Shown: positions 11,683 through 57,244, counted from the first letter of the stretch. The stretch is DNA of 64,000 nt from Macrostomum lignano (GCA_002269645.1 NIVC01001860.1:62001-126000); one strand, 5' to 3'. Made by a program: numbers and translations. The notes: generated by a model not told the origin, from the sequence alone.

Positions 11683-12558
<876 letters not shown>

Positions 12559-27056: not shown

Positions 27057-27207
27057 GCGCAACCTTGGGATTTACTCGGCCGTTTCTATTGGCAACATAC
27101 ATGTAATTGGACGGAATAGTGGTCACGTGACTGCTCTCAGCTAATAGCGACTTACATGTATGTAAGTGTTGCCAATAGAAACGGCCAGGCGATTCCCAAG
27201 GTTGCGC
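27057..27207. promoter_or_regulatory. About 50-bp-arm inverted repeat upstream of adducin, with CCAAT boxes and a loop E-box
   Basis: Arms 27057-27106 and 27152-27207 (GCGCAACCTTGGGA..GGCCGTTTCTATTGGCAACA..TACATGTAA); GTCACGTGAC at 27122-27131. Confidence 0.7.
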
Positions 27208-27524
27208 ATGTATGGTTACAATGATTTAATCAGTCTATTTAATGGCAGACAACTATAACTACCTTAAGTATCATTAGATTAGAGTTTAGATTTTTTACTG
27301 TAATTTCACTATAAATCGATTTTTTACTCTAAAGTAGCATTGAATTTTGAGATATCGTAATAATCATTTGTCTTGAAGTTCTATTATCCAAACTTTAGAC
27401 AAATATTCTAAATCATTTATTCTATTATTTGGTAACAAAAATAACATTTTGGTAACATATGTTAAAGATCATAAAATAGTCAAAACCAAATAAAGCTTTC
27501 AATTGCATGCACAGTAAACCAATA

Positions 27525-28632
27525 TGAGGGGTATTCAAAAAGTTTTGGCAACAGGCTATTAAAATCTAGTGCAAGCTTCATTATTCTAAAAGTAAGGGTT
27601 TACAGTCCTACGTAGTCTCCGCCACGCTCTATGCACTTCTGATGCCTCCGTAGCCACAAATCAAAGGCGCAGCGGTACTCCAATTCAGTGAATGCCCTCA
27701 ACTCTGAATTGAGAGCGCGCGCCAGGTCTTGCGGCCTCTGCACTCAACGAGCTGTGATCTTCTTGAGCCCTAGCTGCTCATGCAGGGTGGTAAAAACACC
27801 GCTCTCAGATATGTCAAGTGTCTGGCTCAGCATGGCAACAGAAATGTTTGGATCCTCAGCCACCAGCGATTGCACAGCGCTAATGTTGCTCTTGTTCACG
27901 GCTGTGCTCGGCCTCCCAGATTGACGGTTGTCACAGAGGCTGCTCCTGCCGGCGCCAAAAGCCTCAATCCATTGTGCAACAGTGCGACAAGATGAAGCTT
28001 GATCCCCTATTACCTGTGCTAAGTTGTGCACATAAAGATGTAGAAGCGCATGTTTTCTGAGCTGATATTTCCATCTTTTGTCACAAGCCAAAACGTAGGT
28101 ATGGTCAGGTGTGAATTGTGCAATAATGAGTGAAGCTATTGCGCTGAAAAATTATATGGTGGTCTTTTTTAGAGGCAGGGGGGTTGTGTGCACCCTGGCG
28201 CACTTTAAGTGACATAGGCACACAACCAGCAAGAGGCATTACTGCCCATTCCGCCGACTCACCTGAGCAGGCATACAAGTGCGCGGATATGTACGCAGGC
28301 ACACACTCACACAGGAGTGTACAGCGGCCCTAACTTATTGTTAGGCATGTACACTTCACTGCGCCTTGGGGGTTGGCTCTCAAGGCCGTTAATTGCATGA
28401 GCAGAGCCAAGCTGAGATTCCAATTCAGCCCCAAATTAATGTGACTGCACTTGGAATCGAGCCTGTGTTGCTGGCACACCAGAGCCTACGCTAGACTGCT
28501 GGGCTACGGCCCCCTTATAGATATATGGTGGTCTCAGGTATATTACTAAAATATTCCTAAAATTTAGTGTGTTTTGCTTGAGCCAAAGTATATCTATATA
28601 TGCAGTTGCAAAAACTTTTTGAATGCCCCTCA
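27525..28632 (-). mobile_element. Mariner (Tc1/mariner) element with internally deleted transposase
   Basis: TIRs TGAGGGG(T/C)ATTCAAAAAGTTTT, TA flanks. HTH region (GRSSLCDNRQSGRP..LGLKKITAR*V) is joined almost directly to the C-terminal KCIERGGDYV; no DD34D domain. Confidence 0.9.
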
Positions 28633-29046
28633 TATAAACAAAAAGGCTTTCTAGATATAGCCATATTATATTCTTGTAGAAAACTATTGTACTAGTCAAC
28701 TATAAATTCATAAATTTTGTAAGATTTATATAACTTTTAGCTTTTAATATATATAGCAATATATCAATATATAGCTTATGTTAAAATTCTATTACACATA
28801 TATTTCTGTTTTTATTATCTATAGCAAAAAACTAATTAAACTAGTACATTGTCAATAAATGCTTCTAACATACAAATTAAAAATGATGCCAAAAAACTAA
28901 ACCATTTATAATCATTCTTCTTTTTGGCTAAAATTGTTTAAATGAATTCTAATTAATTGTATATATTTCATTTTATCATATGAAAACTAGTTTTGAAATT
29001 AAAAAATATTGGCCATATAATTTAGCTTATCTTTATATAATTCCTG

Positions 29047-32879: not shown

Positions 32880-34053
32880 AGCATTCATATTGTAGTCGTA
32901 AATGTATATAGACGTATTACATATAGATGTAGTACATTGTAGCCGTTTTACCCCCCATACCCCGATGGAGAGTGGTGCGGACGTCGTGTACAAGTGCATG
33001 GTACGCTACGGCCAGCGCAGCCGCAATCCAAGCAACAGCCGCCATCGGAAAAGTTTTTCGCATCTTAAATAATGTATGGCAATGTTCAGTATCAATCTTC
33101 TGCAGAGGCTATGCGTCTGACCTATAAGATCCTACACCTAAAGCTGCCTGTGATTGACCTGTCATGCGCCCAGCTAATTTGTATGTAATATATGAGTAAA
33201 CATGTAGATGATGTTGCAGGAAAAATTAGCTTAGCTTCAGATTGTACATGTACATTTCTGCAGAAATTATCTACATTTGCAAAATTGCAGAACATTATTA
33301 CGCGTATATTTAAATGTGATTTGTATGGCTACTCTGTATGCATGCTATAATATTGAATAATATATTAGCTGTAGGCTTGTAATTTAATTAATGAAAATAT
33401 ATTGAACAAACTCCTTAATCGTAAAATACTTGGCTTGACTCATTTTTTGTACTCATATTTATACTCATCAATACTCATATTCATATTCTATTATAATTCC
33501 CTTATTTAAATACTTTAAATTTGCCATTTCGTTGTTAGTCGTCACTTTCGTCCAAAAATACCGTAAAAAATTTTGGCGCGCTTTCAAATACTTAATTATA
33601 TTTTACAATTAACATCGAATCGTCTTTATAAACTTCTATTTCGAAAATTTTTCCAAATACATTGCCGTATAATATATTGGCCAAACAGGCTAACTGCCTG
33701 AGCCAAATTCCTACTACTACTACTACTACTTGGCGTAGCGTAGTAAGTAGCGTAGTATGCTTGCGAACTCGAATTATATATGCTGACGATATTCTATATA
33801 AACGTTGGAGTTAAACGCGCCAATCCTTCTATGGCAGAGGCCACCGATTTTGGAAATTTCTAATCTGAGTTAGCCCAGCTGCTTTGACATCCAAGCGTGC
33901 GTTCCACGCATTAAGGACTTTCAGGTTAAAGCTCACTTAGCCTGCTATACATTTAATACAATTTGGCTGAGATTGCATGAACTGAACTTTAGCTATTGAG
34001 AAATAACACTAACTGCACTACGTGTCGGCCAACTTGGATTTTTAACAGTAAGA

Positions 34054-34165
34054 ATGACAGTCGTTACAGTCAACTTCTGTCGCTGCATGCTAGCTGTGTG
34101 GCTGTTCTCATCAATATTCTGCTTTAGTGGCTGCGTTGGTTGCAACTTCATCACCAGGCAAATCA
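34054..34165 (+). CDS. Secreted WSC-domain protein, exon 1 (signal peptide)
   Basis: MTVVTVNFCRCMLAVWLFSSIFCFSGCVG is a hydrophobic leader; donor A|GTGAGT, phase 1. Confidence 0.75.
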
Positions 34166-34209
34166 GTGAGTTTTTTCATTATTCTTGCGCAAGAAATATT
34201 TGGTTAGTT

Positions 34210-34990
<781 letters not shown>

Positions 34991-35169
34991 TAGTTGGTTA
35001 CAGGTACATGTGTACTGTATCGTTATAGTTTTCTTTTGGAACATTAGGAATGCTTCTAGAATCCTGAGCCTTGAGACAATAAAACAACTTCTAAGCAACA
35101 AAATTTCACAATCTTCAACTTTTAAGTTCCAATTCCAATTCCAACTGACCTGCACCTTGAGCATTTCAG

Positions 35170-35465
35170 TTAAGCGTAAGACTTTCACGTACATGGGTTG
35201 CTACATGGACAAGGCGCAGTCCAGGGACCTGTTGATCCCAGGCGGACACGGCAATCACATGGACCCCACCGAGTGTAACGAGGTATGCAAAAAACGAATG
35301 AAAACAAAGTTCATGGGCCTACAGGACGGCGGCAACTGCTGGTGCGGCAACAAATTCAATAAGTACGGCAAAGCCAAGGACAGCGCGTGCAACACACCAT
35401 GCGCCGGGAATCCAAAAGAGAAGTGCGGTGGCAGGTACCTCAACTCAGTGTTTGAAACTGCTTGA
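35170..35465 (+). CDS. Secreted WSC-domain protein, exon 2 (135 aa total)
   Basis: Acceptor CATTTCAG; YMGCYMD..MDPTECNEVC..FMGLQDGGNCWCGN..CNTPCAGNPKEKCGG shows the 8-Cys WSC pattern. Confidence 0.88.
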
Positions 35466-35704
35466 AACAGATGCTGATAATATCTACCAGCTATTACAAT
35501 GTATTAAGTTTTTAAGCCTCTCGCAGGCCGTGCAGTCTACTGCCTGTGATAACTTATTAGTTGATATGTGCATTTGCAAATACACTATGCATGCCTCAGC
35601 TAGGGCTTACTTTAAAAGTCCACTAGGACTTATAGCTATATTAGTATTTCGACTTGGGCCTTCTGCTTACTTTTTTGCGACTCAATCGGGCATTTTTAGC
35701 GGCT

Positions 35705-36848
35705 TCTTCCTGTGGCGGTTGCGAGTATTTTAGTTCCAACTCTTCCTGTGACGGTTGCGAGTATTTTAGTTCCATCTCTTCCTGTGACAGTGCTACTGCA
35801 GTTCCAACTCTTCCTGTGACGGTTGCGAGTATTTTAGTTCCAACTCTTCCTGTTACGGTTGCGAGTATTTTAGTTCCAACTCTTCCTGTGACGGTTGCGA
35901 GTATTTTAGTTCCAACTCTTCCTGTGACGGTTGCGAGTATTTAGTTCCAACTCTTCCTGTGACGGTTGCGAGTATTTTAGTTCCAACTCTTCCTGTGACG
36001 GTTGCGAGTATTTTAGTTCCAACTCTTCCTGTTACGGTTGCGAGTATTTTAGTTCCAACTCTTCCTGTGACGGTTGCGAGTATTTTAGTTCCAACTCTTC
36101 CTGTGACGGTTGCGAGTATTTTAGTTCCATCTCTTCCTGTGACGGTTGCGAGTATTGTAGTTCCAACTCTTCCTGCGACGGTTGCGAGAATTGTAGTTCC
36201 AACTCTACCTGTGACGGTTGCGAGAATTGTAGTTCCAACTCTTCCTGTGACGGTTGCGAGTATTTTAGTTCCAACTCTTCCTGTGACGGTTGCGAGAATT
36301 GTAGTTCCAACTCTTCCTGTGACGGTTGCGAGTATTTTAGTTCCAACTCTTCCTGTGACGGTTGCGAGTATTGTAGTTCCAACTCTTCCTGTGACGGTTG
36401 CGAGTATTTTAGTCCCATCTCTTCCTGTGACGGTTGCGAGTATTGTATAGTTCCAACTCTTCCTGTGACGGTTGCGAGTATTTTAGTCCCAACTCTTCCT
36501 GTGACGGTTGCGAGTATTTTAGTCCCAACTCTTCCTGTGACGGTTGCGAGTATTTTAGTTCCAACTCTTCCTGTGACGGTTGCGAGTATTTTAGTTCCAT
36601 CTCTTCATGTGACAGTGCTACTGCAGTTCCAACTCTTCCTGTGACAGTGCTACTGCAGTTCCAACTCTTCCTGTGACGGTTGCGAGTATTTTAGTCCCAA
36701 CTCTTCCTGTGACGGTTGCGAGTATTTTAGTTCCATCTCTTCATGTGACAGTGCTACTGCAGTTCCAACTCTTCCTGTGACAGTGCTACTGCACTTTCAA
36801 CTCTTCCTCTGAAAGCTATTGTAGTTCTAACTCCTCTTGTGACGGTTA
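35705..36848. repeat. 36-bp minisatellite (GTTCCAACTCTTCCTGTGACGGTTGCGAGTATTTTA)n
   Basis: Read directly; abuts the broken end of the LINE fragment. Confidence 0.96.
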
Positions 36849-38075
36849 TTGCAGTTCGGCGGCTATGCAGCGTAGCGGATCCATTTTCAGCCTGACAGTA
36901 TTGCTACTGGCCAGGAGGTTGAGCTGCCGGGCGCAGTCGGCGACTGTCCGGGAGTTCGTGGTGGTGTGGCAAAGGGACTGTAAGGCCGCTTGGCTGTCAG
37001 AGTGGATAACGATAGTCTCTCCTCTCGTACCCTTGGCATTCATTTCTGCGGCCCAGGAGCTGATATGCTCGTAGCAAGGACGTTGTTCTGGAAGACCGTA
37101 GAGAGTCTGCCAATGTGCTGGGCATGCGTAGCAATCCAGACGCGGCCGTCGATGATGCAGACCCCAAAGCCGGCGCGACCGTCTTTGATGGATCCGTCCG
37201 TGTAGCAATGGACCTCCTGGAAATTCCAGTGGTCATTGGCAGCATCCCTAGAGGGGATGGTGACCTTGTAGCGCTGAAAGAGGTTGAGAGTGCGGGGTTC
37301 GCCGTCAGATAGGACGTGGAGCCCGCCGCTGTCTCTCAAGTCCTTGAGGCAGAGGTCGGCGTGGGGCAGAAGCTTACGCTTAGCCATGGCCCTATGGGGC
37401 TGGATTCGAATGCCAGCGTCAGCTAGACGGCGGGCAGTCTTAGCCGCTTCCCTGCGGACAAAGATGTCCAGCGGGGGAATGTTGAGGAAGGCGTTGATGC
37501 CATCGTAAGGAGCAGACGGAGGGGCGCTCATGATCGTGCGACATGGGCGCCCTTGCGCTCTCCTGAGAGCCTCTAGACAGGTCTTTACCTGCAGGGCGCT
37601 AGCCCAGATCAGGCCGCCATACGAGATAGCGGGCCTAACCATTGCAGTGTAGATCCACCAGAGGCGCTTGGGGGTGAGCTCCCAGGTGGTGCCGACAGCC
37701 CTGCGCAGCTGCGCGAGGACTGCGAAGGCCTTTTTGGCTTTTGTTTGAACGTGGGGTGACCAGTTCAGCCTGTGGTCCAGGGTAATACCCAGACATTTAC
37801 TGTGCTTGCAGAAGGGGATTTCCCTTCCGTAAAGCGTGAGCGGCCGAATCTGCCACTTGGTCCTGCTGGTGAACATGATCGCTGCGGTCTTAGTCTCAGA
37901 GAGCCTTAAACCACAGCGGTCCGCCCATTGCTCAGCGGTGTAGATAAAGTTCTGAAGAAGGTCCCTAAGGGTATCAGGGGACGGACCAGATGCCACCGCG
38001 GTGACATCGTCCGCATATCCAACTTTCAGAATGGGGTCAGGCCGAGCATCCCAAACGAGCTCATCGATGACAAAA
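36846..38075 (-). mobile_element. Non-LTR retrotransposon fragment (RT C-terminal half + RNase H), LOA/R1-like
   Basis: VGYADDVTAV (about 38010), LGITLDHRLNWSPH, WELTPKRLWWIYTAMVRP, HCYTDGSIKDGRAGFG and IHSDSQAAL; truncated at both ends and frameshifted. Confidence 0.88.
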
Positions 38076-38350
38076 ACATGAAACTAAGTCTGATATAAAA
38101 AGTATCAATTGTTGCTTAGATACCAGCAGGTTTAAAGTTGCGCGAATTACAATAACGTGCTGTTGTGGTGCATAATTACTTTGCTTGTTTAAAAAACCTA
38201 AATTTGCAGCATAATTAGTTTTTTAATACTTCAATACATTATTATTGAATGTTATGGTACTAAACGGCTTCCCAGGTGTGTCAAAAGTTTTTAAGGTTTT
38301 CACTTTTTGTGTTTAATTGTTGTGGTAACATGAACTCACATGGCAAGTCC

Positions 38351-38712
38351 GGGTCTCCCTAAAACACGCACCGCACCGCCCCGAACCGCTACACATTATA
38401 ACATTTTTTGTCAATGCAGAATTTGATTGCAAAGAAAACAATTTGTTGTAAGAGTAATGTAATAAATATCTTTAATTATTATTTTAAATATTATTATTAT
38501 TTTTTATATTCTCGTTTTCATTACTAAATTATTTTATTAATATTATTATTAATATCACTTATTAGTCACCGAATTTCGAATTTAAAAAACTAAATTTAAT
38601 AAAAAAATTTAAGCTTAACAGAAAACGCATTTTGAAGTGTCTTCAGTTATAGTCCAATTTGTTTTAATGTGTAGCGCTGCAGGGCGGTGCGGGGCGTGTT
38701 TTAGGGAGACCC
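38351..38712. mobile_element. Mutator-type MITE, 362 bp
   Basis: About 50-bp imperfect TIR beginning GGGTCTCCCTAAAACACGC; perfect 9-bp TSD GGCAAGTCC at 38342-38350 and 38713-38721. Confidence 0.85.
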
Positions 38713-39600
38713 GGCAAGTCCGTCGATCCTATTATTCGTAGCCTGTTTAATGTAGCAGCGTCCTTCACTCGTACATAGTCATACGAATACAATTTAAATT
38801 TATATAACATGGTTTATGACTAGGCTAGGCCTATGGCCATATACTATAGCCTATAGGCTACCAGTCCAGCCTGAGTTTTTTCTGTGGCGCTAAGAATATG
38901 CGAAATCGCACCCAAGTGCAAGTCAAGACCAAGGCACATAGCCGTAGGCATAGTCATTATAGCTTATATAATAATAATATAACATAATGGCAATGCCAAT
39001 GGCAATGCAATAGCAAATTATATAGCTAGCATACATACAAAGTTTGCCAATGTCACTAGGGGCCTATTTATTTATGTAATACTTAAAATAGAGAAATTAG
39101 TTAACTCAAGTCAATTATAGGCCCTAGCTACTAAAATTAAGTAGCTTACTTGATAATAACTTGTATTGTAAACTACATAATAATAATATAGCCTAAATAT
39201 AGCCTATATAATAATATAGCCTATATATGCAGGCCTATACACTAATGGCTAGATCTAGGCCTATCTTATTGCTATTATATTCCATGAAAAGAAAGAATAA
39301 AAATGCCATTCAAAATAGGCCTAGTCTATGTATTAATAGCCCAGGCCTATTCCAAATGCTTTGGCTTTATTTATTATATATTAAGGGCCTAAGCCTATTT
39401 ATTAAGACTGTTTATTGACTAGATTCTTATAATAAATTTATATTAGGCCTATAGTTTATTTACAACCATAGATAAGTAGCATAGCAATAATATAGGCCTA
39501 GGTCTAATCTCTAGAAAGTCAAATATTTATTATAAGGCCTATTATAAGTATGTAATAAAAATGAATAAACATATTTAAAATATATATAACTACTCGCAGT

Positions 39601-40367
39601 TGTGACAGGCCTTTTGGCTCTGTCTTTCTAAACTTCTAACTATTAGTGTTTATTAAATATCCTACGAGCTGCCACCAAAGTTGTTACAGGCCTTTCACCT
39701 CTTACTTTATCAATTTTAATCCCACCGATTTGCCAACTACAGTTATCCTGATTATACTTGCTTTTACTCCCTAACTATTTCTTAGAATTTCATTTAAATA
39801 TTTCTGGGTAGCGTTCTTAGTAGCGTTTCTGGTAGCGTTCTTAGTAGCGTTTCTGGTAGCTTATGGCTTGCTTTCTGGTAGCGTTCTAGTAGCTTATGGC
39901 CTGAGCGGTCTAGTACTGGTATATGTATTAGTGTATAGTCCTAATCGGGCGTTCACCGAGACTAGAGGGTCACGGCGCCTCTCTTGGTATATCTCCAAGA
40001 ATTAGTCCCAATTCCCTTCTCTTAGCAAATTTCTTAGAATCGTTTCACAGGTTTTGCAAATAAATAAGTCGCTATTTAGCTCAAAGACTTTGAAATGGTT
40101 TAGATTGAACTGCTTATTCTGTTCGCAATTATTTGCTCACGAGTAAAAGACAGTTAGAGTATATTTGTCGCGAAACCGCTCCTATATATAGTGATTTTCC
40201 CCACATACGATTAAAACAAAAAATAATTCTCCAATTTATTTCGCACATTAAAACAAACTATTATTTGGCGTTCGCGTAGATTCAGTTTCTAAGAAAGATT
40301 CGAATATACAGTTATTACATTGAAAGAACATTCGAGTATACTATGATAAAGGCATAGCACTAGTACA
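39601..40367 (-). repeat. 3' LTR (767 bp)
   Basis: No difference from 47528-48294 found by eye; TATA-like TATATATA near 40183-40190; AATAAA on the minus strand near 39650. Confidence 0.97.
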
Positions 40368-40368
40368 A

Positions 40369-40380
40369 CTTTCCTCCTCT
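40369..40380 (-). other. Polypurine tract AGAGGAGGAAAG
   Basis: Immediately upstream of the 3' LTR on the element strand. Confidence 0.85.
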
Positions 40381-40653
40381 AAATATCAAATTTTGAACGA
40401 AATACTATATTATATGTATACAGTGAAAAATTGAAATCGTAGGAAAATGCAGGTGAAAAGGTGCAAAGCAAGGTGCAGAAAACACAATTCAGTGCTAAAA
40501 CAATTGGTGCATAAAATGGTTGTGATAGAACTATTATGTAGGTAAACCATTAAAGTGAGAACTATTATGGAAGCAAAACGAACTATTATAAAAGTATTAT
40601 AAAAGGCAAAATTGTTATTAAAGGCAACGCAAAAGTTAGTTCACCTCAATAGT

Positions 40654-40920
40654 TCAGATAAACATGCAGGGCTCCGGGAGGTCGCGATAGTAGGGCCAGC
40701 CGACTTGAGCGAAAAACCATCGGTACTCTTCGTCGAGGACCGTCAGCGCTGGCGGCGGGTTGGCTCTTATAGCTCGCTGGAGGCGATAGGCGACGTCCTG
40801 GAGAACAGCGACAGCTTCCTGGTAACTGAATTGATCCCTCAGAAACTTCAGGTGTGTCCAAATTTGCGAGCATTGGGGGTAGCGCTGTCGGCTGTCGGAT
40901 CGGTGGTAGGCCCCCCTACG
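40654..40920 (-). CDS. ATG-less 88-codon ORF in the +1 frame at the end of ORF3
   Basis: RRGAYHRSDSRQRYPQCSQIWTHLKFLRDQFSYQEAVAVLQDVAYRLQRAIRANPPPALTVLDEEYRWFFAQVGWPYYRDLPEPCMFI*; globular-like composition; translated by hand. Confidence 0.4.
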   Translation of the reverse strand, partial: RRGAYHRSDSRQRYPQCSQIWTHLKFLRDQFSYQEAVAVLQDVAYRLQRAIRANPPPALTVLDEEYRWFFAQVGWPYYRDLPEPCMFI

Positions 40921-41539
40921 CTACTTTCAGTGCGTATTGCTCAATGTGGAAGCGTAGCTTTTCCACCTCTGCTCCGCGAGTCTCCACAAGTTCTCGGACG
41001 ATGCGATGAAAATCTCTCTGCGAATTCGATTGCTGCTGGCTCGGCTGTAGTGCTGATGGCTGGCTAGACTGCTGCGCTGATTGCAGGCTCGGCTGCAGCG
41101 CTGACTGCTGCGCTGATTGCAGGCTCGGCTGCGACGCTGGCTGCTGAGCTGGCGGTGTCGCAGCTGTCGATTTCTTCTGCCGTGGTGCCGGGGTCTTTCT
41201 CGATGATGGGGCAGCTGGCGGTGACACCAATTGCTGCGTTCGGCTTGATGTCGACGATCCTGGCGTGGCCTTGACAACATAGGAGCGCACGGGCGCAGCT
41301 GCCTGTGCTGCCACCAGGGCGGCGCGCTTCTGTTCGGGGCCTTCGACCCTCATTTGGCGGCAAGGCGATGAAGCTGGCGATGATGTTCTTGGCCGTTTGC
41401 TGGATACACCAGGCGCCTTTGGACGTGTTGCACATCGAAGCGGTGCCTCATTTTCGTCGGTGTTGGGCGCTGGCTGAGGCTCCATATCGTCTGACAGGTC
41501 ACCGATCAACTCTTGCAGAATGTCGACTGAGTTATCCAT
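40916..41539 (-). CDS. Accessory ORF3 of the gypsy element (207 aa, S/P/Q/A-rich, not env)
   Basis: Same sense as pol, between pol and the PPT. Acidic N-terminal helix, basic KRPR/RQKK patches, QPS repeats, C-terminal helix; no signal peptide or TM segment. Confidence 0.7.
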   Translation of the reverse strand: MDNSVDILQELIGDLSDDMEPQPAPNTDENEAPLRCATRPKAPGVSSKRPRTSSPASSPCRQMRVEGPEQKRAALVAAQAAAPVRSYVVKATPGSSTSSRTQQLVSPPAAPSSRKTPAPRQKKSTAATPPAQQPASQPSLQSAQQSALQPSLQSAQQSSQPSALQPSQQQSNSQRDFHRIVRELVETRGAEVEKLRFHIEQYALKVA

Positions 41540-41620
41540 ATGGTTCTCTTCGAATGACTCTTAGAATAGAAAGGAAGCTAGCAGTGAGCTATGGGATCTG
41601 TGGGGCCTGCAGGGTGCTCG

Positions 41621-41690
41621 TATTTATAGGCTGGCGGGCCGAAAAACTGGACCTCTTCGAAGCACTCCCCTCGCGCGTGGGGCGGGGCAT
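41621..41690 (-). promoter_or_regulatory. Internal Pol II promoter for ORF3 (GC box + TATA box)
   Basis: TATAAATA at 41628-41621 and a GC box CCCCGCCCC near 41679-41687, about 80-150 nt upstream of the ORF3 ATG. Confidence 0.6.
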
Positions 41691-41937
41691 GCCAGATTTG
41701 ACAGATTTGACAACTAAATTTTTATGGATTTTCTATTTCTTTTTATAACTTTTTTATTTTTTGATAGATTTTCTTGAGTAAAGTATCAAATTAAAGATCG
41801 CATTTTGTAGATTAATATGGTATTTACAGATTCGCTCTATGTACAGCATGTCAAATTTTATAAGCAGATAAGTAATTCTAATACGGAATTTTAACTATTT
41901 AACACTGTTTCTTATGGGAAATTGCTTACGTCATGAT

Positions 41938-44900
41938 TTAAGGTGCTAAATATCTCGCGTAGCGCCTTCGGGGCACAAATCCTGTCGCGCCTTCTCTTTC
42001 TCTCCTTCGCTGAGTCATCCTAAAGTTATACCTATTCTCTGGCTGAACTCGTTCCTCCTCTAACTCTAATGCTCCTTCTTCTTCTTCTGATGGCTCATCT
42101 GAGTCAGTCGCTCTCTCTGTATTCTCACTGTTTAATTCTTCATTTCCTTCGTTTTCACTCTGCGAATTCGGATCTGCGAATACTCTCCATTGAATTCTGT
42201 TTTCTTCGTCTGAGCTTTCCTCTAAAATTTGAACTTCTGGAATTCTAACTTCTTTTTGTCTATGGCAAATTCTTTTCTTCGGCTTCGGCTGTTCTTTCTT
42301 CTTAGTTGGCACTGGTGCTGGTTTTAAATTATTATTAATTTCCTCTGGTAAATCAATTTCGGATTTCGGCACTGGAGTCAGATTATTTCTATGTACTAAT
42401 AGTTTTTCTCCGCTCCTTTCGCCATTGATTTCTCTTTGCACACGGAACACTGTGTCTGATATCTTCGCAAGTACTCGATAGGCTGCTCTTTTCTTTCGAT
42501 GAAATTTGTGGCTCTCCTCTTGGTGAAGTTGAGGATTGTTGATGAGAGCGAGACAGCCAACTGGCACATTTTTAGGCTGACGATTCTCAACTTCGTCCTC
42601 TTGCCTTTTCTCTCGCACCTTTTCGAGTTGTCTTCGCACAATTGCTTTTGTCTCCTCGATTCTCTTGGCATGATCCAGCACATAACTAGGATAGTCTCGG
42701 TATAGTCTTGGCCTTTTCACAATGCTATCTATTGGCAAATCTGCTTCTCTCCCGAATAGTAAGTAGTGTGGTGTGAACCCAGTAGTTTGATTAACACTGG
42801 TTCGCACAGCTACCAAAGCGGCGGGTATGAGCAGATCCCAATCTGAATGATCCTTTTCAATCAAACAGGTTACAATCGATTTAATTTGCTTGTTAAATCT
42901 TTCGACAAGCCCGTTACTCTGAGCATGGTAAGGCGTAGTGCAAGTATGCTTAATGCCGTATAGGGTACAGAATGCCTGAAATTGGTGACTTACAAAAGTC
43001 TTGCCATTATCAGTGTGTATCCATTGACACTGGCCATACTCGCTGAAAATTCTCTCTTGTATCGTTTTGATAACAGTCGCGGATTTCTGATTCCGAACCG
43101 GAAAAGCGAATGGGAACTTTGTTGTACTATCTACGACAGTAAGTACATATCGGTGTCCTCTTCTGCTTTCCTTTGATATTGGACCGATCAAATCTATGTG
43201 CAGCCGATGAAATGGCTCGCATATCGGAAAGGTCTGCACCGGTGCTCGTACTTTATTTCCGTTTTTACTTTCCAGACACGGGATGCATTCTGCGATGTAC
43301 TTTTCAACTGCAGTCACTAACCCCGGCCTCCAGAATCGGTCTCGGACTCGCTGTAGCGTCTTGTCCCGACCTAGGTGGCCTGCTAGCGGACTGTCGTGCA
43401 GCTCTTTGAATACATCTTTCTCAATCTTCTCTGGCAATACTACTTTTCGTTTACCGTCTTCACTGACTGTCAGCATTTCATCTTCGATTTTCATCTGCTC
43501 GTAGAACTTAACCATCTTCTTCAATTCTCCGGATGCATTTTCTGGTAACTTCGGCTCACGCACTTTCTTCTGCTTCCAGTCCATCAAGGTTCTTATAGAA
43601 GGATCAGCATGCTGCGCTGAAGTCAGCTGCTCTTTCTTCAATGGAACCGAGAGGTAATCTGTCAGAAGCTTTCTGCACACTGTCTCTTCCTCTTCGAAAT
43701 AGTCTCTTGCATCTTCATAGATGTCATCATCATCTTCGAACTGATCACTGGCATCTTCGTATTCATCATCTGCGAATTCGTCTTCGGAATCTGATTCATA
43801 CTCTTCTGTGAAGTCGGTCTGGCAACTCTGATCTTTCACGCTGTTAGTCACGACTTGTTTCACAGCGCTGGTTTCTATTGTCATCTTAGGAATTTCGGCC
43901 TCATTCTCTTTGATCTTAGCATCTTTCTGTTCAACTGGTGGTTCCGAGGGTCGCCGTGACAATCCATCTGCGTTGGAATGTTTGGCTCCACTGCGGTGCT
44001 CAATATCGTATTGAAACTCACTCAGTCTTTCAATCCATCTTCCGAGAATTCCTTGGGCTTCGGTCTGGCGCAGTAACCATAGAATTGCCTTGTGGTCTGT
44101 GCGGGCCAGAAACCTTTTGCCAATTAGGTAAAATCGGAAGTGTTTCATGCCATCTACTAGCGCTAATAGCTCTTTTCTGGTAATCGGATATCTTTTCTCA
44201 GACTCTTTCATTGCTCTGCTGAAGTAAGCAATGGGTCTTTCAACCCCGTCCGATTGTATTTGACCCAGGCAAGCACCAATTCGGTCTTCGCTTGCGTCGG
44301 TGTCTAATACCATTCGAACATTCTCGTTCTCTGAGAATTCTGGGTACGCGAGTACTTCGGTCGATGTCATTCTCTGCTTCAACTGCTGGAAAGCCTCGTC
44401 ATGTTTCTTGGTCCACTTTTCCCTAAAGTTTTGAATACCTTTCTTAGTTAATTGAAATAGCGGATGCGCTGCCTCTGCGTAATTCTTTACAAATCTGCAG
44501 TAGTAGTTACACAACCCCAAGAAGCTTCGCAGTTCTTTGACCTCTTTCGGCGTAGGCCATGACTGTATCGCTTCGATCTTAGCTGGGTCTGTTCTAATCC
44601 CTTCTCTTCCTACGATATGCCCTAAGTACTTTAGCTCTTTCTGAAACAAGTTGCACTTTTTTGGTCTTAATTTTAGTCCTGCTGAGATTAGTCTTTGAAA
44701 TACTTCTTGCAGATGACCGAGATGATCTTCGAATTTCTCTGAGTATGTCACAATATCATCTATGTACGACATTGCGAATTTGTGCTGTATTCCCATCAGC
44801 ACCAAATTCATGAGTCTCTGGAATGTACCAGGAGCGTTAGACAAGCCCTGTGCCATGACCTGATATTCGAACTGGCCTCTGGTAAGGGTGGAAAAGGCTG

Positions 44901-46446
44901 TCATAAATTTGTGCTCCTCTTTGATAGGTACCTGCCAGTATCCAGAGTTTAAATCTAGACTACTGAAGTACTTGCTTCCAGATAACTGAGCGAAAGTCTC
45001 TTGTATGTTCGGCAATGGATATGGGTAATAGTTCACTCTCGAGTTCAGGACCCTGAAGTCACTGACGATTCTTATGGATCCATCCTTCTTAGGAACTATC
45101 ACTAGCGGCGTTGAATAAGTACTATAGCACGGTCGGATCAGGTTCTTAGCAAGCATGTCGTCAAGTTGCTCATCTACTTGCTTTTGCAGATGTGGTGGAA
45201 TTCTGCGTGTTGGAATCCTGACCGGTGTGGTATCTTTTAGAGATATTTCATGAGTCACAAGATGGGTGAGACCCATGTCTTGGTTGGTCTGCGAAAATGC
45301 TTCCTTGTTCTTCTTTAGCAAATCGATCACTAGTCCTTTCTGTTCTGATGTTAGCTCTTCTCCTAAATCGATCTCGTTTATCCAGCTGTACTCACTCTCT
45401 TCACTCTTCACTGTCCTAATTGTATCATCTGAACTGGCTTGACCTTTGCTGTTAATAGAGTAGGCCAGGCCTCCTGGCTTCAAGGGTTTGGCCACTCCAA
45501 TCAGCGTAGATCTTGTCAGTCTGATATCGTCATTCTGTCGATTGATTATTTCCACTACTCCTGTTCCATCGTTCATGGTCACTAGAGTAGGAATCATCTC
45601 TAAGGAATTTCTCTTCGTAGTCACTTGGCCTCCAATGGTGTCAATGACCATTGGCGTTCCATAGTTGGCTTCTGATCCTTTAGTCATTCTAATTGGAATT
45701 CGAAGAGCGCTATTCGCTGGTATAGTCACGCTGTTATGGCTGTAGATTCGGCAAACCCGTACGGGTAATTTTGTAAACTGAATTGGGATGCAGGTTCCTT
45801 CTTTTAATACAAGCATTCCTCTGGAAAGGCTGATGCTGTCGCAGAAGTTCATGAAGAACTCCATCCCGAGTATGTCGTCACACTCGTGATTGCACAGCAG
45901 GAACTCTGTCTCAATCTCTATCTCTCCGAATCGTATTTTCGTTCTGACTTCTCCTTCAATTCGCACACTTGATCCGTCAAACGTAGTCACTCTTCGAGTA
46001 GTCAACTCAATTTCATCACTTCTGAACATCTTTTTCCAAGTACTCTTGCTTAGGAAATTATGTCCAGCTCCTGTGTCTAGCAAGAAGTAGACCTTTCGGT
46101 TTCTTAGCATTCCATTGACGACTGCTTCTCGTCCTTTTCTCTCCGTATCTTCTTCGAATTCTCTCTTCGAATGCTCATTCGGAATTACTGTACTTTGTAC
46201 TTTATTATTCGGCCTACTGTGGCTAGCAGACGCATGACTAGGTGCAAGCGGCATATGTACACGAGGTGCAAAATTTTTATTTGGTTTTCTGTGAAATTTA
46301 TTGAATTCGGCATGCGTTCTGCTGTTACTATACTGTCTGGCATTACTTCGATACGCATTATTTACAAATTCAGAGGCCTGAAATTCGCGATAATTGTTGC
46401 TAGAGGGACGTGGCCTCGCAAAGCGGCCCTCGCTACTCAGTTTCCC
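41938..46446 (-). CDS. pol: Pol polyprotein (protease, RT, RNase H, integrase), expressed by -1 frameshift
   Basis: LDTGA, LDLNSGYWQV, YIDD, DTDAS, HHCC zinc motif and D,D35E (HIDLIGP / HTDNG / NGLVERFN). The frame is open from the GGGAAAC slippery site (46446-46440) through the ATG at 46254. Confidence 0.96.
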   Translation of the reverse strand, partial: GKLSSEGRFARPRPSSNNYREFQASEFVNNAYRSNARQYSNSRTHAEFNKFHRKPNKNFAPRVHMPLAPSHASASHSRPNNKVQSTVIPNEHSKREFEEDTERKGREAVVNGMLRNRKVYFLLDTGAGHNFLSKSTWKKMFRSDEIELTTRRVTTFDGSSVRIEGEVRTKIRFGEIEIETEFLLCNHECDDILGMEFFMNFCDSISLSRGMLVLKEGTCIPIQFTKLPVRVCRIYSHNSVTIPANSALRIPIRMTKGSEANYGTPMVIDTIGGQVTTKRNSLEMIPTLVTMNDGTGVVEIINRQNDDIRLTRSTLIGVAKPLKPGGLAYSINSKGQASSDDTIRTVKSEESEYSWINEIDLGEELTSEQKGLVIDLLKKNKEAFSQTNQDMGLTHLVTHEISLKDTTPVRIPTRRIPPHLQKQVDEQLDDMLAKNLIRPCYSTYSTPLVIVPKKDGSIRIVSDFRVLNSRVNYYPYPLPNIQETFAQLSGSKYFSSLDLNSGYWQVPIKEEHKFMTAFSTLTRGQFEYQVMAQGLSNAPGTFQRLMNLVLMGIQHKFAMSYIDDIVTYSEKFEDHLGHLQEVFQRLISAGLKLRPKKCNLFQKELKYLGHIVGREGIRTDPAKIEAIQSWPTPKEVKELRSFLGLCNYYCRFVKNYAEAAHPLFQLTKKGIQNFREKWTKKHDEAFQQLKQRMTSTEVLAYPEFSENENVRMVLDTDASEDRIGACLGQIQSDGVERPIAYFSRAMKESEKRYPITRKELLALVDGMKHFRFYLIGKRFLARTDHKAILWLLRQTEAQGILGRWIERLSEFQYDIEHRSGAKHSNADGLSRRPSEPPVEQKDAKIKENEAEIPKMTIETSAVKQVVTNSVKDQSCQTDFTEEYESDSEDEFADDEYEDASDQFEDDDDIYEDARDYFEEEETVCRKLLTDYLSVPLKKEQLTSAQHADPSIRTLMDWKQKKVREPKLPENASGELKKMVKFYEQMKIEDEMLTVSEDGKRKVVLPEKIEKDVFKELHDSPLAGHLGRDKTLQRVRDRFWRPGLVTAVEKYIAECIPCLESKNGNKVRAPVQTFPICEPFHRLHIDLIGPISKESRRGHRYVLTVVDSTTKFPFAFPVRNQKSATVIKTIQERIFSEYGQCQWIHTDNGKTFVSHQFQAFCTLYGIKHTCTTPYHAQSNGLVERFNKQIKSIVTCLIEKDHSDWDLLIPAALVAVRTSVNQTTGFTPHYLLFGREADLPIDSIVKRPRLYRDYPSYVLDHAKRIEETKAIVRRQLEKVREKRQEDEVENRQPKNVPVGCLALINNPQLHQEESHKFHRKKRAAYRVLAKISDTVFRVQREINGERSGEKLLVHRNNLTPVPKSEIDLPEEINNNLKPAPVPTKKKEQPKPKKRICHRQKEVRIPEVQILEESSDEENRIQWRVFADPNSQSENEGNEELNSENTERATDSDEPSEEEEGALELEEERVQPENRYNFRMTQRRREREGATGFVPRRRYARYLAP

Positions 46447-46599
46447 TGCTGCTTCTGGTAGTCCATCACTCGCTGACCGTTTGGCCTAGCGCTCTGGCAA
46501 TTCCTCGCCATGTGGCCAAGCTTCCCGCAATTGTAGCAGGCTCGAGGCTGCTGTTGTTGCTGTGGCTGCCTGTTGAACTGAGGCTGACCGCGCCATACT

Positions 46600-46632
<33 letters not shown>

Positions 46633-47426
46633 GGTCCAGCGACCTGAGCGTACGTTTGATATTGATTCTGCGGATGATACTGCTGACGGCTAGCTCTCTT
46701 CTCTTCCATCAGCTCCTCAATCGCCTTCTTCTGTTGCTCTAACTCTGCTCTCTGCTTCTTGATGATGTCCTCAAGCTTCTCCTGATCTGCCTTCTGCTCA
46801 CTCTCGCCTTCGCCTTTGGCCATTCTCATGTTGACATTCTTGTGAGACATGTTCCACGCAGCCTCCATCCTTCTTAGCATTCTTCTAGCCTCTTGTAAAT
46901 TGCCTGGCTGCGCAAAGATTAGCTTCTCACGGGTCTCTGACGGAATTCTGATTCCCTTGATGAATTGCTCAACAATTTCTTCTTCCCTTTGCTCAACCGT
47001 CATATTCGGAAATGCACGCGATGCCAGCTCGATCAAACAGTCTGCGAAAGTCTCTACAGGCTCATTTCTGCCTTGCATTCTTCCACGAAACTCCTCTCTG
47101 AATTCTGCGGAACTACCGATTCTTCCGAATCGCTCAATCAGTCGCTCTTTGAACTCTTCGTATTCGAGATCCTCGGGCAGATTTAGGCGCTGTACCGCTG
47201 CGAATGCAGTGGACAGGTCCAGATTAGCTAGCAATTCCTGCTTCCTATGTTCCTCATCTATCCCTTCTACTTCACAGCGCTGATCGAAAGCTGTTAGCCA
47301 AATCCGAGTGTCTTGCGTAGGTGTGAATTTCTGAATCTTAACGTGTCTCATCGGCCGTATCTCTAGTCGGTTTCGCAATTCTTCTGCCAGCATGGCGATG
47401 GCGTCATTAGCCTGATTCTGATTCAT
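46437..47426 (-). CDS. gag: Gag (329 aa) with CCHC zinc knuckle
   Basis: Capsid-like region plus CYNCGKLGHMARNC. Confidence 0.95.
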
Positions 47427-47514: not shown

Positions 47515-47525
47515 CGCTGCCACCA
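47515..47525 (-). other. Primer binding site TGGTGGCAGCG, complementary to the tRNA-Leu 3' end
   Basis: 2 nt after the 5' LTR; metazoan tRNA-Leu(AAG/TAG) ends ..CCACCGCUGCCA-CCA (recalled sequence). Confidence 0.88.
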
Positions 47526-47527
47526 GC

Positions 47528-48294
47528 TGTGACAGGCCTTTTGGCTCTGTCTTTCTAAACTTCTAACTATTAGTGTTTATTAAATATCCTACGAGCTGCC
47601 ACCAAAGTTGTTACAGGCCTTTCACCTCTTACTTTATCAATTTTAATCCCACCGATTTGCCAACTACAGTTATCCTGATTATACTTGCTTTTACTCCCTA
47701 ACTATTTCTTAGAATTTCATTTAAATATTTCTGGGTAGCGTTCTTAGTAGCGTTTCTGGTAGCGTTCTTAGTAGCGTTTCTGGTAGCTTATGGCTTGCTT
47801 TCTGGTAGCGTTCTAGTAGCTTATGGCCTGAGCGGTCTAGTACTGGTATATGTATTAGTGTATAGTCCTAATCGGGCGTTCACCGAGACTAGAGGGTCAC
47901 GGCGCCTCTCTTGGTATATCTCCAAGAATTAGTCCCAATTCCCTTCTCTTAGCAAATTTCTTAGAATCGTTTCACAGGTTTTGCAAATAAATAAGTCGCT
48001 ATTTAGCTCAAAGACTTTGAAATGGTTTAGATTGAACTGCTTATTCTGTTCGCAATTATTTGCTCACGAGTAAAAGACAGTTAGAGTATATTTGTCGCGA
48101 AACCGCTCCTATATATAGTGATTTTCCCCACATACGATTAAAACAAAAAATAATTCTCCAATTTATTTCGCACATTAAAACAAACTATTATTTGGCGTTC
48201 GCGTAGATTCAGTTTCTAAGAAAGATTCGAATATACAGTTATTACATTGAAAGAACATTCGAGTATACTATGATAAAGGCATAGCACTAGTACA
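47528..48294 (-). repeat. 5' LTR (767 bp)
   Basis: Copy of 39601-40367; followed by TSD CAGT. Confidence 0.97.
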
Positions 48295-49319
48295 CAGTTA
48301 ACTTAATAAAGCTAAGAAGATACATAATAATTTCTTAAATAAATTAACTAGGCCTAGATAAAGTCTTAGGCCTATAATATAAAAGTCAAGCTTAAAATCA
48401 TCTATCATTTATTTTTTGTTTTCTTTAAAATATCTATCTATTAAGTATTAGGGCCTAAGCCTAGGCTAGGCCTAAGTTTAAATTTGAACCAAACTTGTCT
48501 AAAGCAAAAATTTTAGCCTGTCTTTAATAATTATTAGGCCTTACAATTCTTAGCCTTAGCTTATAGGCTTCTTAGTTAATATTATAGCTTTTTGTAGCCT
48601 ATTTGCCATATTTAGGCCTATGCATATTGAATTGAATTTATGAATATATTTGCTAATATAATGGAAGCTTTTGTCTATGGTAGCAAAGCTAGTATAGTGG
48701 CATTTAATTTGGTCCAAATGCTTGTGAGCCATTTGGCAAACTCTTGTTTTCTTGCAACTATAATAAGTAAACTCGGATGGTTAGTGCAAGGTAGAAAAAT
48801 AGTATGGCCCTCACAAGAGCCCACAACCAATGAATATATATTTGGGGCATAGTACCCTTCTGATTCATATTGATTTTGATATGGCCGAATATACATAAGT
48901 AAAATATACATGCAACCCCAACTCATAGCAACCATTGGCATATTGCTATAATATAAATGTCTATCAACAAGTTGATTTAGTTGCTTTTCTAGAGCTCTGC
49001 TAATAATAAAAAACCTGATAACCAACTAGAACTATTCTTTAAACTTCTATTAATTTTTTTTCAATGTAATAAAAGGTTCTCTTTCCTTTTCTAGGCAACC
49101 TTTGCTAGCAATGGTTTTAATGCACTGCTAGATACTTTTCTTTTCTTTTATATTTAGCAACATTGCAATGTCTTTTGGGTGATTATCTCTGTTTAGTGCT
49201 TAGATCATAGCCAATGGCATTCATTTGACACTTGATAACCTAGTATATGGTCTATAATTATGGGGTTGCAATCTTGCTTTTTTGTTGCAATTGCTAATAA
49301 AGCTTGATTGATTCGGACC

Positions 49320-49623: not shown

Positions 49624-50039
49624 GCGCATAGGTACAAATGTGCTGCAAAAAGCTATATTAATATACATAGTAATAGAAGAAAGGTTAGAAAAAACCTTAA
49701 TTAAAGACACCTACATCTCAACCCTTGCTTGCATAGCATAGCTCTCTCTTAATTAAAATTTTAATTGCTAATTTTAACCTATTTAATACCTACAGAGCAA
49801 ATATAATAACTAAACAAAAAGGCAAAAATGCTTATAAAAGGCAAGCAGGTAGGCTAAGCTAGCATGCCCATAGAATAAATTACTCAATTAATAAATAAAT
49901 AAATATAACTAAATGTTCTCAGCTTTTTACAAACTTAAATCAAGTCTTCCATCTTGTGCTTTGATTGGTATCCTAAGCAATTTCTAAGAAAAACGATTTC
50001 TTCACTGCAGCATTAAGCAGCAATCGGCTGAAAGCAGAA

Positions 50040-50653
50040 ATGTCAACAAAACAGACAGGAAAGACTAGAAAGTCGGAGCGCAGCAAAGCTGCTGAGACCT
50101 CCAAGCAGCAGAAACAGGCTGAGTCCATTGTCACAGAGGCGGAGGAAATCGTCAGCGAGCAGCAGCAGGGAGAATTTGAGGAAAATATTGAGCAGCAGGA
50201 GCAGCAGCAGGAGGAAGCTAGCACTGTAGTGACCACAGTGACAAAGAAGGTCACTTCGCTGCTCACTGGCACCCCAATAACAGCGGCAGCAGCCAGCTCC
50301 AGCAGTTCCAGCGTAGGCGGCAGTCGGCATCGCCGATCGCGCAGTCCGCTAGCAATCTCTCGTGAACAAGAGAAAGAAGAGCTGGCCCATCTCAACACTA
50401 AGCTGGCCTGCTATATTGAGTTTGTACGCTCTCAGCAGCAGTCTGCGGAGACTGTCCGCCGCCAGTACGAGTCTCTAAGCGAGTCGGCTAACCAGGAGTT
50501 CAGCCAGAGCACAGGCCTGTACGAGCGGGAGATTGGCGGCCTGCGACAGCAGCTGGACCGGCTGGCCGGGGAGCGGGCGGACCTGCAGCTGGCTCTGGAC
50601 AAGGCCAATGCTGAACGGGCTCAGGCGGAGAAGCGGGCCGCCGCATTGGAGAA
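50040..50653 (+). CDS. B-type nuclear lamin exon 1 (gene 50040-59187, about 662 aa)
   Basis: Long head, RSRSP CDK-type site, EQEKEELAHLNTKLACYIEFVR coil 1A; donor AA|GTTAGT. Confidence 0.92.
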
Positions 50654-50953
50654 GTTAGTTGGACTGCTTTCCAATAGCTTGATGCGCTGTCTATAGAATG
50701 ACAATTAGAAAGTCAGAACCGCTGTAACACCCTGTGTGAGCGTGTGTATGACTGGCTGCCTTGTAGGTGCTCAGAAGCCAGCTTGGCTTGAAGCGGAATT
50801 GCTTGCCATTCCGGTAAGCAGAGAGCCTCTTCGCCACAAGTCGCAAGCGTTACTCCTTTTTGACGGTTGTTTTTCCTTTCAAGTTCGCGCGCCTGATCTC
50901 AACAAAGATCCCTATGCACTACTAACTCAGTATTGTAACGCATTCCGCCCCAG

Positions 50954-53304: not shown

Positions 53305-55330
53305 ACCCGATAATCCAGTGGATAGATACTCAAACCGATAATCCAGTGGATAGATATTCAACCCGATAATCTAGTGGATAGATAAATACTCAACCCGATA
53401 ATCCAGTGGATAGATAGATACTCAACCCGATAATCCAGTGGATAGATAGATACTCAACCCGATAATCCAGTGGATAGATAGATACTCAACCCGATAATCC
53501 AGTGGATAGATATTCAACCCGATAATCCAGTGGATAGATAAATACTCAACCCGATAATCCAGTGGATAGATAGATACTCAACCCGATAATCCAGTGGATA
53601 GATAGATACTCAACCCGATAATCCAGTGGATAGATAGATACTCAACCCGATAATCCAGTGGATAGATATTCAACCCGATAATCCAGTGGATAGATAAATA
53701 CTCAACCCGATAATCCAGTGGATAGATAGATACTCAACTCGATAATCCGGTGGATAGATACTCAACCCGATAATCCTGTGGATAGATACTCAACCCGATA
53801 ATCCAGTGGATAGATAGATACTCAACCTGATAATCCAGTGGATAGATAGATACTCAACCCGATAATCCAGTGGATAGATACTCAACCCGATAATCCAGTG
53901 GATAGATAGATACTCAACCCGATAATCCAGTGGATAGATACTCAACCCGATAATCCATTGGATAGATACTCAACCCGATAATCCGGTGGATAGATACTCA
54001 ACCCGATGATCCGGTGGATAGATACTCAACCCGATGATCCGGTGGATAAATACTCAACCCGATAATCCAGTGGATAAATACTCAACCCGATAATCCAGTG
54101 GATAGATACTCAACCCGATAATCCAGTGGATAAATACTCAACCCGATAATCCAGTGTATAGATACTCAACCCGATAATCCAGTGGATAAATACTCAACCC
54201 GATAATCCAGTGGATAGATACTCAACCCGATAATCCAGTGGATAGATACTCAACCCGATAATCCAGTGGATAAATACTCAACCCGATAATCCAGTGGATA
54301 GATACTCAACCCGATAATCCAGTGGATAGATACTCAACCCGATAATCCAGTGGATAGATACTCAACCCGATAATCCAGTGGATAAATACTCAACCCGATA
54401 ATCCAGTGGATAGATACTCAATCCGATAATCCAGTGGATAGATACTCAACCCGATAATCCAGTGGATAGATACTCAACCCGATAATCCAGTGGATAAATA
54501 CTCAACCCGATAATCCAGTGGATAGATTCTCAACCCGATAATCCGGTGGATAGATACTCAACCCGATAATCCAGTGGATAGATACTCAACCCGATAATCC
54601 AGTGGATAAATACTCAACCCGATAATCCAGTGGATAGATACTCAACCCGATAATCCAGTGGATAGATACTCAACCCGATAATCCAGTGGATAAATACTCA
54701 ACCCGATAATCCAGTGGATAGATACTCAACCCGATAATCCAGTGGATAGATACTCAACCCGATAATCCAGTGGATAAATACTCAACCCGATAATCCAGTG
54801 GATAGATACTCAATCCGATAATCCAGTGGATAGATACTCAACCCGATAATCCAGTGGATAAATACTCAACCCGATAATCCAGTGGATAAATACTCAACCC
54901 GATAATCCGGTGGATAGATACTCAACCCGATAATCCAGTGGATAAATACTCAACCCGATAATCCAGTGGATAAATACTCAACCCGATAATCCAGTGGATA
55001 GATTCTCAACCCGATAATCCGGTAGATAGATACTCAACCCGATAATCCAGTGGATAAATACTCAACCCGATAATCCAGTGGATAGATACTCAACCCGATA
55101 ATCCAGTGGATAGATACTCAACCCGATAATCCAGTGGATAAATACTCAACCCGATAATCCAGTGGATAAATACTCAACCCGATAATCCAGTGGATAGATA
55201 CTCAACCCGATAATCCAGTGGATAGATACTCAACCCGATAATCCAGTGGATAGATACTCAACCCGATAATCCAGTGGATAGATACTCAACCCGATAATCC
55301 AGTGGATAGATACTCAACCCGATAATCCGG
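53305..55330. repeat. 28-bp minisatellite (TACTCAACCCGATAATCCAGTGGATAGA)n in lamin intron 2
   Basis: Read directly; ends about 65 nt before the exon 3 acceptor. Confidence 0.97.
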
Positions 55331-55395
55331 TAGGTACGAGTATGCGCCCGATGAAAAAGCCTACAAAATCTTACCTGCCCTCCTCGCTTTCCCAG

Positions 55396-57052: not shown

Positions 57053-57169
57053 GTGTGGAGCTCGGACTCTGGCAAGACCGCCAAACCGCCCTTGGAGTTT
57101 GTCTCTAAGAGCACCGGCTTGGGCCAGGCTAACAGCTACGATGGCACTCTGCTGGACTCTCGGGGTCAG
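57053..57169 (+). CDS. Lamin exon 5 (rest of the LTD)
   Basis: VWSSDSG..GTLLDSRGQ, phase 0-0; donor GTGCGT. Confidence 0.9.
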
Positions 57170-57244
57170 GTGCGTGCCAGACGCCTGCGTCTAAATTGTC
57201 GCGAACCAACTAATATTAGTAAACAGCCTCCTAAAAACTACTCG

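Follow-up and report, generated by a model that had tools for sequence, protein, structure and literature searches.

We identified a gene, ORF3, between pol and the 3' LTR of a Ty3/gypsy retrotransposon of Macrostomum lignano, and it is almost certainly a real, selected gene. The intact gene comprises ~290 codons, obtained by joining two reading frames, and the copy in the window (by which we mean the whole 64-kb stretch of DNA that was analysed) is a broken allele. ORF3 is under purifying selection, as measured over 20 codons (2-21). Tentatively, and at less than even confidence, our analysis reads its product as a nuclear transactivator-like accessory protein, which would be made from an internal promoter in the style of the foamy viruses.

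The host element

The Ty3/gypsy element that harbours ORF3 is 8.7 kb long, lies on the minus strand of the window and has the following features:

48295..48298 (minus): target-site duplication ACTG, 5' copy
47528..48294 (minus): 5' LTR, 767 bp, same sequence as the 3' LTR, with a TATA-like site at 48117 and AATAAA at 47581
47515..47525 (minus): primer-binding site TGGTGGCAGCG, an 11-mer starting with TGG, 2 nt from the LTR
46437..47426 (minus): gag, 329 aa, open, with one CCHC knuckle and a poly-Q stretch
46440..46446 (minus): slippery heptamer G GGA AAC at the gag end, in the gag/pol overlap
41938..46485 (minus): pol, 1515 codons, open, PR-RT-RNaseH-integrase
40381..40653 (minus): AT/U-rich 3' untranslated stretch
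40369..40380 (minus): polypurine tract (PPT) AGAGGAGGAAAG, adjoining the 3' LTR
39601..40367 (minus): 3' LTR, 767 bp, with AATAAA at 40240 and 39654, candidate 3' ends for the ORF3 message
39597..39600 (minus): target-site duplication ACTG, 3' copy

The original prediction had described identical LTRs and intact gag and pol genes, and both descriptions hold. The two 767-bp LTRs are identical, have the ends TG..CA and are flanked on either side by the 4-bp target duplication, while gag and pol are each open, with Pfam matches in Pol at residues 124-211, 464-625, 691-824 and 1018-1187 giving the order PR-RT-RNaseH-IN, up to a pol stop codon at 41938-41940. At the heptamer, which is followed by a hairpin with a raw folding value of -17.1 kcal/mol, we infer a -1 shift from gag into pol. 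The primer-binding site presumably matches tRNA-Leu; no tRNA gene for comparison was found within the 64-kb window. Pol residues 380-1400 are 100% identical to the M. lignano gene model BOX15_Mlig011037g1, and the corresponding Pol cluster comprises 10 members; 9 of them are long and 98.4-100% identical to the Pol of the window, and one of these may be the window's own copy. Named Pol matches outside Macrostomum carry the labels '412' and 'K02A2.6' and show 34-48% identity. The element family is young and multi-copy.

Additional features were observed in Pol and in the LTR. Between its RNase H and integrase, Pol has a long insert rich in Asp and Glu (window ~43650-43810, minus strand), and its C-terminal tail is acidic (~41940-42300, minus strand). 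Within its 3' part the LTR includes a near-copy of its own end together with the primer-binding site, internal to the LTR and 79 nt upstream of the genuine one (47575-47630, with 39648-39703 as the counterpart in the 3' LTR); this near-copy may be a record of LTR extension or a second priming site.

Extent, integrity and selection of ORF3

The distance from the pol stop to the PPT is ~1.56 kb, in agreement with the ~1.55 kb given by the original prediction, and the GC-rich island placed there is present as well, at ~58% GC against 20-32% in its flanks. It extends to ~40650, ~260 nt beyond the stop of the first ORF3 frame, and encodes ORF3 on the strand that also carries gag and pol:

41700..41937 (minus): AT-rich spacer, 25% GC, leading from pol to the GC island, with AATAAA at 41758 within an A-rich run
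40916..41539 (minus): ORF3 first part, 207 codons, encoding an acidic helix, EAPLR and KRP motifs and a disordered linker with QPS repeats
40907..40916 (minus): break in the window copy, ten extra bases relative to the main contigs, producing a +1 shift and then a stop
40654..40906 (minus): ORF3 second part, encoding the rest of a six-helix domain and ending in a GWPYY segment

The same-sense frame of 207 codons (41539-40916) reported earlier is present with the motifs quoted for it, but 207 aa is not the length of the protein. An 88-codon frame (40920-40654) that had been missed overlaps the ORF3 stop in the +1 frame and contains the second part, which is 40-51% identical to three related proteins (pairwise E 7e-24 to 2e-18) that are themselves continuous; the first part also encodes the first two helices of the folded domain. 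We compared contigs over 40368-42400 from four sequencing runs of four studies, out of 24 runs listed, and the ten bases at 40907 were missing from the main contig in 4/4 runs at full depth (869/869, 221/221, 47/47 and 30/30). The stretch is contained in 20 of the 24 runs, none of them recorded as RNA, and contigs lose rare variants, so that these comparisons bear on the dominant copies. The frame is therefore open in the dominant contigs and broken in the window copy, the opposite of the frame broken in most copies that had been named earlier as a refuting case, and the break is either a true single-copy change or an assembly error. Furthermore, a 2066-nt contig of run X17 spans the pol end, spacer, ORF3, PPT and LTR; since it bridges the end of pol to the LTR, the cassette belongs to the family.

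Two ways of translating past the stop were considered and rejected: a programmed +1 frameshift, because sister copies simply run on uninterrupted, and stop read-through in frame 0, because only the continuation in the +1 frame matches the relatives. Other frames of the GC island (154, 157, 140 and 127 codons) gave no Pfam match. Beside the break, at 40912-40979, unexplained extra contig depth was seen in runs X11 and X9, and not in X2 or X17.

Between the majority contig and the window we counted at least 22 differences among the 40 of 153 rows listed. Among these rows, 16 differences fall in codons 2-21, with 11 at third positions, 5 at first and 0 at second, corresponding to 11 synonymous and 5 replacement changes (pN/pS 0.12, Fisher p 8e-7), and two further coding differences beyond codon 21 are silent. 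Together with 9 further Pol records at 98-100% identity, this pattern supports ORF3 as a real gene of a young family. Over 416 nt, a more divergent copy can be aligned gap-free with 73 differences, a result that concerns the alignment only.

The N-terminal allele of the window is real, as an exact 95-nt contig occurs in run X2. The ORF3 start occurs in two strongly differing alleles, which coexist between common flanks at 41477-41557; that of the window seems to come from a more distant subfamily, which suggests, on sequence comparison, a recombination swap of the acidic N-terminus. Also observed, at 41727-41892, were loose contig ends corresponding to sister subfamilies with a common pol-side spacer that diverge at the promoter, one of these ends resembling the upstream edge of the promoter with an altered GC box.

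The ORF3 protein and its relatives

A HMMER search of 1.84 billion representatives returned only three relatives:

P0004: 349 aa, E 8e-27, 43%, M. lignano hypothetical protein
P0005: 235 aa, with a cluster mate, P0007, of 251 aa
P0006: 90 aa, M. lignano hypothetical protein

All three, at 35-47% identity, are continuous across both window frames. A profile search of longer proteins recovered 2 of 7992 candidates, both already known relatives, and a word-seeded search with the C-terminal region recovered 0 of 93; neither the 1.84 billion representatives nor two word-seeded searches yielded a relative named from another organism. In M. lignano, P0004 and P0006 each have a separate gene model and are listed as ordinary hypothetical genes. 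According to the available text of PMC5730564, the M. lignano gene annotation was built from an RNA-seq-guided assembly, a weak sign that the relatives are transcribed apart from pol, the tie of their gene ids to that annotation being inferred. Their gene ids were not found in papers and supplements, and none of their accessions is adjacent to the 11 Pol accessions listed, a result that is uninformative on linkage.

These records bear on the origin of ORF3. A host gene of M. lignano might have been captured with its promoter and kept for a host-like function or as a passenger, as the GC-rich island with a promoter of its own inside an AT-rich spacer and the two named relatives, ordinary hypothetical genes without a neighbouring Pol accession among those listed, could suggest. 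We consider such a capture very unlikely, given that none of the searches above named a relative from another organism, that passenger status conflicts with a pN/pS of 0.12, and that the loose ends at 41727 show sister subfamilies with a common spacer and a cassette in which they part, the pattern that long vertical inheritance within the element would be expected to leave.

Comparison with the relatives also separates the conserved parts of the protein from the variable ones. Each of the 3/3 full-length proteins keeps the acidic N-terminal helix, EAPLR, KRP at 17-18 residues behind EAPLR, a second basic patch and the C-terminal domain. The acidic amphipathic N-terminus of the original prediction is thus retained in the relatives. 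Of its basic NLS-like patches the KRP motif is kept, but the sequence of RQKK is not conserved, nor is that of the QPS repeats, which are present in the window ORF, and the linker varies in length. The predicted C-terminal helix is no more than the start of a folded domain of ~115 aa that had been overlooked. Net charge is -10 over the N-terminal 31 residues and +16 over the next 99. A strict K(K/R)x(K/R) import pattern occurs in 2/3 full-length proteins, P0007 having KRPM. On these sequence features the ORF3 protein is, with good probability, nuclear.

As originally proposed, ORF3 is not an env gene. Neither a signal peptide nor a membrane segment was found in the two window frames and three relatives, where the highest 19-residue hydropathy is 0.26-1.02; the ORF3 proteins have 0-1 N-glycosylation sequons and 2-3 Cys, and no Pfam family, fusion-protein families included, scored above cut-off. 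The HPD motif is absent from 5/5 proteins, and there is no DnaJ match.

In the structure model of P0007, a helix at residues 7-17 is followed by a mostly disordered stretch (21-133) and a folded region from ~130 onward, and the C-terminal 116 residues of P0004 are modelled as six helices with pLDDT 86.6 and pTM 0.82 (four-row alignment). The break in the window copy falls after the second helix, and the 207-aa product would therefore lack four of the six. The domain is weakly basic to near neutral (net charge 0 to +4). Searches of Pfam, PDB sequences, the ESM Atlas (with P0004), the Foldseek PDB and viral libraries and VIA-align gave no clear match: Foldseek returned none with E up to 0.001, and the best VIA-align row among 48,161 chains was 3zta (Z 8.2, rmsd 3.9, 100 aligned), within the helical-bundle background. 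A missing fold match does not show a new fold, and a homologous family may lie outside the libraries searched.

An all-helical domain of this kind, joined to short conserved motifs in a disordered chain, would also fit a counter-defence adaptor, whose acidic helix and helical domain would engage two host proteins, for example a silencing factor plus a chromatin or ubiquitin-ligase complex, and would lift silencing with no binding to the LTR. The near-neutral charge of the domain is consistent with this, as are the two N-terminal alleles, saturated at silent sites and seemingly swapped between subfamilies, and a cullin-repeat bundle that ranks near the top of the structural matches (Z 7.5, rmsd 3.7, 100 aligned). 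However, a Z of 7.5 falls within the tool's helical-bundle background, and selection over the 20 codons is purifying rather than diversifying; we regard the adaptor as rather unlikely.

Upstream region and candidate regulatory roles

Upstream of ORF3, and in the LTR, we identified the following putative regulatory features:

41679..41687 (minus): GC box CCCCGCCCC on the element strand
41621..41628 (minus): TATA element TATAAATA of the predicted internal promoter
41595..41600 (minus): initiator-like CAGATC, at +29/30 from the TATA
41560..41580 (minus): pyrimidine tract plus AAG, acceptor-like, 20 nt before the ORF3 ATG
47706..48222 (minus): three TTCT(A/T)AGAA near-palindromes, at 48222, 47966 and 47714, ~254 nt apart in the LTR

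The GC box and TATAAATA, on which a promoter had originally been proposed, are both in place, and a transcript start is predicted at ~41599, from which no ATG intervenes before that of ORF3. Of the 57 TATAWAWR matches on both strands of the window, this TATA alone has GC-rich flanks. When the 161-nt core was dinucleotide-shuffled 20,000 times, TATA with the initiator at that spacing arose at 1.5e-4 and TATA with the GC box 0 times, a co-occurrence beyond chance; the motifs were picked after inspection of the sequence, so these figures flatter the promoter case. Taken together, it is reasonably likely that ORF3 has its own promoter.

The promoter core and the LTR have no more words in common than expected by chance, and a response element common to both was rejected on that ground. 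Within the LTR, TTC-N3-GAA has a P of 0.0018 in 5000 shuffles, calculated post hoc, and the ORF3 leader contains an 8-of-9 copy of the near-palindrome. These near-palindromes, candidate binding sites for a dimeric factor, may be recognised by the ORF3 protein or by a host STAT-type factor. No three-unit heat-shock element was found on the element strand, and a triplication of the LTR behind the 254-nt spacing was rejected, as there is no self-similarity at that period. The more specific proposal, that a transactivator made from the internal promoter has a new six-helix fold and binds the three near-palindromes and the near-copy in the leader, strikes us as quite unlikely.

The same region could be read as a splice acceptor. 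The tract at 41560 ranks best of 638 acceptor-like tracts on the element strand, with no ATG between it and ORF3, and GTRAG donors occur in the LTR at 48067 and 47632. A Rev-type export pattern (hydrophobic x2-x2-x1) stands at one place in 3/3 relatives. Together, the best acceptor-like tract and this pattern keep alive a Rev/CERV-like reading, in which ORF3 would be a shuttle translated from a spliced or spliced-leader trans-spliced message and would export unspliced genomic RNA. A precedent is CERV of C. elegans Cer1 (PMC10309623, available text), and 38.8% of M. lignano genes are trans-spliced (PMC5730564, available text). Conversely, the acceptor ends in AAG, whereas cis and trans acceptors of M. 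lignano are enriched for CAG and YTNCAG in the available text of PMC8629364. The export pattern is loose, with four matches each in P0004 and P0007, and is absent from both window frames, although it is in that segment that the break lies; a single unbranched contig crosses the acceptor-like tract in run X17, which is guessed rather than recorded to be RNA; no splice junction appeared among the contigs compared, which span the cassette; and the reading gives no account of the TATA, initiator and GC box. On this balance we judge a shuttle unlikely.

We return to the nuclear transactivator, which we tentatively favour. By established transcription-factor anatomy, an acidic helix, an import motif, a disordered linker, a compact domain and a TATA promoter of its own make up the layout expected of a nuclear regulator. 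A short message would start at ~41599 and end at one of the poly(A) sites of the 3' LTR, and its product would use the conserved basic motif KRP for import. The acidic amphipathic N-terminal helix would recruit a host co-activator, and the six-helix C-terminal domain would provide targeting through DNA, chromatin or self-association. A basal internal promoter could make the protein while the LTR is quiet, gag-pol transcription being switched on thereafter as by Tas, a protein of ~300 aa. The product of the window copy would lack most of the folded domain, and this copy would depend on intact sisters in trans. Counting against a transactivator are the folded domain, weakly basic and showing no known DNA-binding fold, the strict import pattern in 2/3 proteins only, and the lack of excess words shared by promoter and LTR. 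Acidic amphipathic helices also bind many kinds of partner, so activation is not singled out.

The import motif could serve a cytoplasmic or particle cofactor as well, one that would assist Gag, integrase or the pre-integration complex as a chaperone or in nuclear entry, since a basic motif might bring such a complex into the nucleus, a role suggested for additional ORFs of plants (PMC7264820, available text). A stoichiometric particle component, however, needs no separate promoter, and we judge a cofactor highly improbable.

As a class, additional ORFs located between pol and the 3' LTR are already known, while no match to the ORF3 protein family was returned from outside these worms by our searches. 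In the available text of PMC7264820, gene23 of maize Grande is an antisense ORF between pol and the 3' LTR, nuclear and self-promoted. Grande gene23 and other plant additional ORFs share with ORF3 a gypsy context, an orphan 3' internal ORF, an upstream promoter and a nuclear protein (predicted for ORF3), but gene23 is antisense where ORF3 is sense, the hosts are plant and animal, and no sequence relation was found. Foamy viruses have an internal promoter and Tas/Bet (PMC13220597, available text), and likewise place a same-sense regulatory gene near the 3' end behind an internal promoter (predicted for ORF3). Tas, by the same text, lies behind env, carries its activation domain at the C-terminus and is a proven DNA binder, whereas ORF3 has an N-terminal acidic helix and belongs to an element without env; no Tas-ORF3 homology was found in the sequence and structure libraries searched, and the ORF3 parts for activation and targeting are predicted from sequence.

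The tested case that we found among simple animal LTR elements is CERV, a spliced nuclear export factor (PMC10309623, available text). CERV and ORF3 are both lineage-restricted accessory proteins with an orphan folded domain, and both may carry import and export signals. CERV, however, has 517 aa, is spliced, shares exons with gag and contains a Cys loop and a G-protein-like domain, whereas ORF3 is one free-standing ORF with an all-helical domain. LTR elements of bdelloid rotifers carry non-env ORF3s encoding a GDSL esterase, a DEDDy exonuclease and small membrane proteins (PMC5408684, available text); those are recognisable enzymes or membrane proteins, while the present ORF3 has neither a Pfam family nor a membrane segment. 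No description of ORF3 was found in the open-licence literature: the term 'ORF' is absent from the main text, as available, of a survey of M. lignano LTR families (PMC12801592), and the available portions of PMC13524379 and PMC13269885 give no account of it.

A hallmark of complex retroviruses is that they encode regulators of their own; for simple animal LTR elements, such regulators have hardly been characterised. With ORF3 comes an orphan protein family whose well-modelled domain has no clear known fold, carried by a young multi-copy element, and the question of whether retrotransposons without env encode transactivators or silencing antagonists of their own becomes directly testable. The host is amenable to RNAi and transgenesis, and an LTR reporter has already been used (PMC12801592, available text). 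The layout alone would be unsurprising to a specialist, whereas a demonstrated circuit would surprise: if the more specific proposal, with the ORF3 protein binding the LTR near-palindromes, is true, an env-less retrotransposon would have built independently a foamy-virus-like, self-amplifying latency-to-activity circuit.

Elsewhere in the window we observed an intermediate-filament (lamin-like) exon at 49977-50696 (plus strand; Pfam Filament, E 1e-12), ~1.7 kb from the 5' LTR, and a frame with a WSC domain at 34932-35465 (plus strand; E 5e-19). At 36846-38083 (minus strand), a fragment resembling a non-LTR reverse transcriptase is followed by an RNase H-like stretch, as judged by eye. Inverted-repeat pairs of 41-55 nt at 38349-38714, 27522-28635 and 27057-27207 are probably small DNA-transposon derivatives. 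Much of the window is occupied by minisatellite arrays with units of 8 to 36 nt, at approximately 2431-3485, 11655-12500, 13359-16000, 34053-35000, 35691-36735, 53737-55500, 57105-59000 and 60688-63000.
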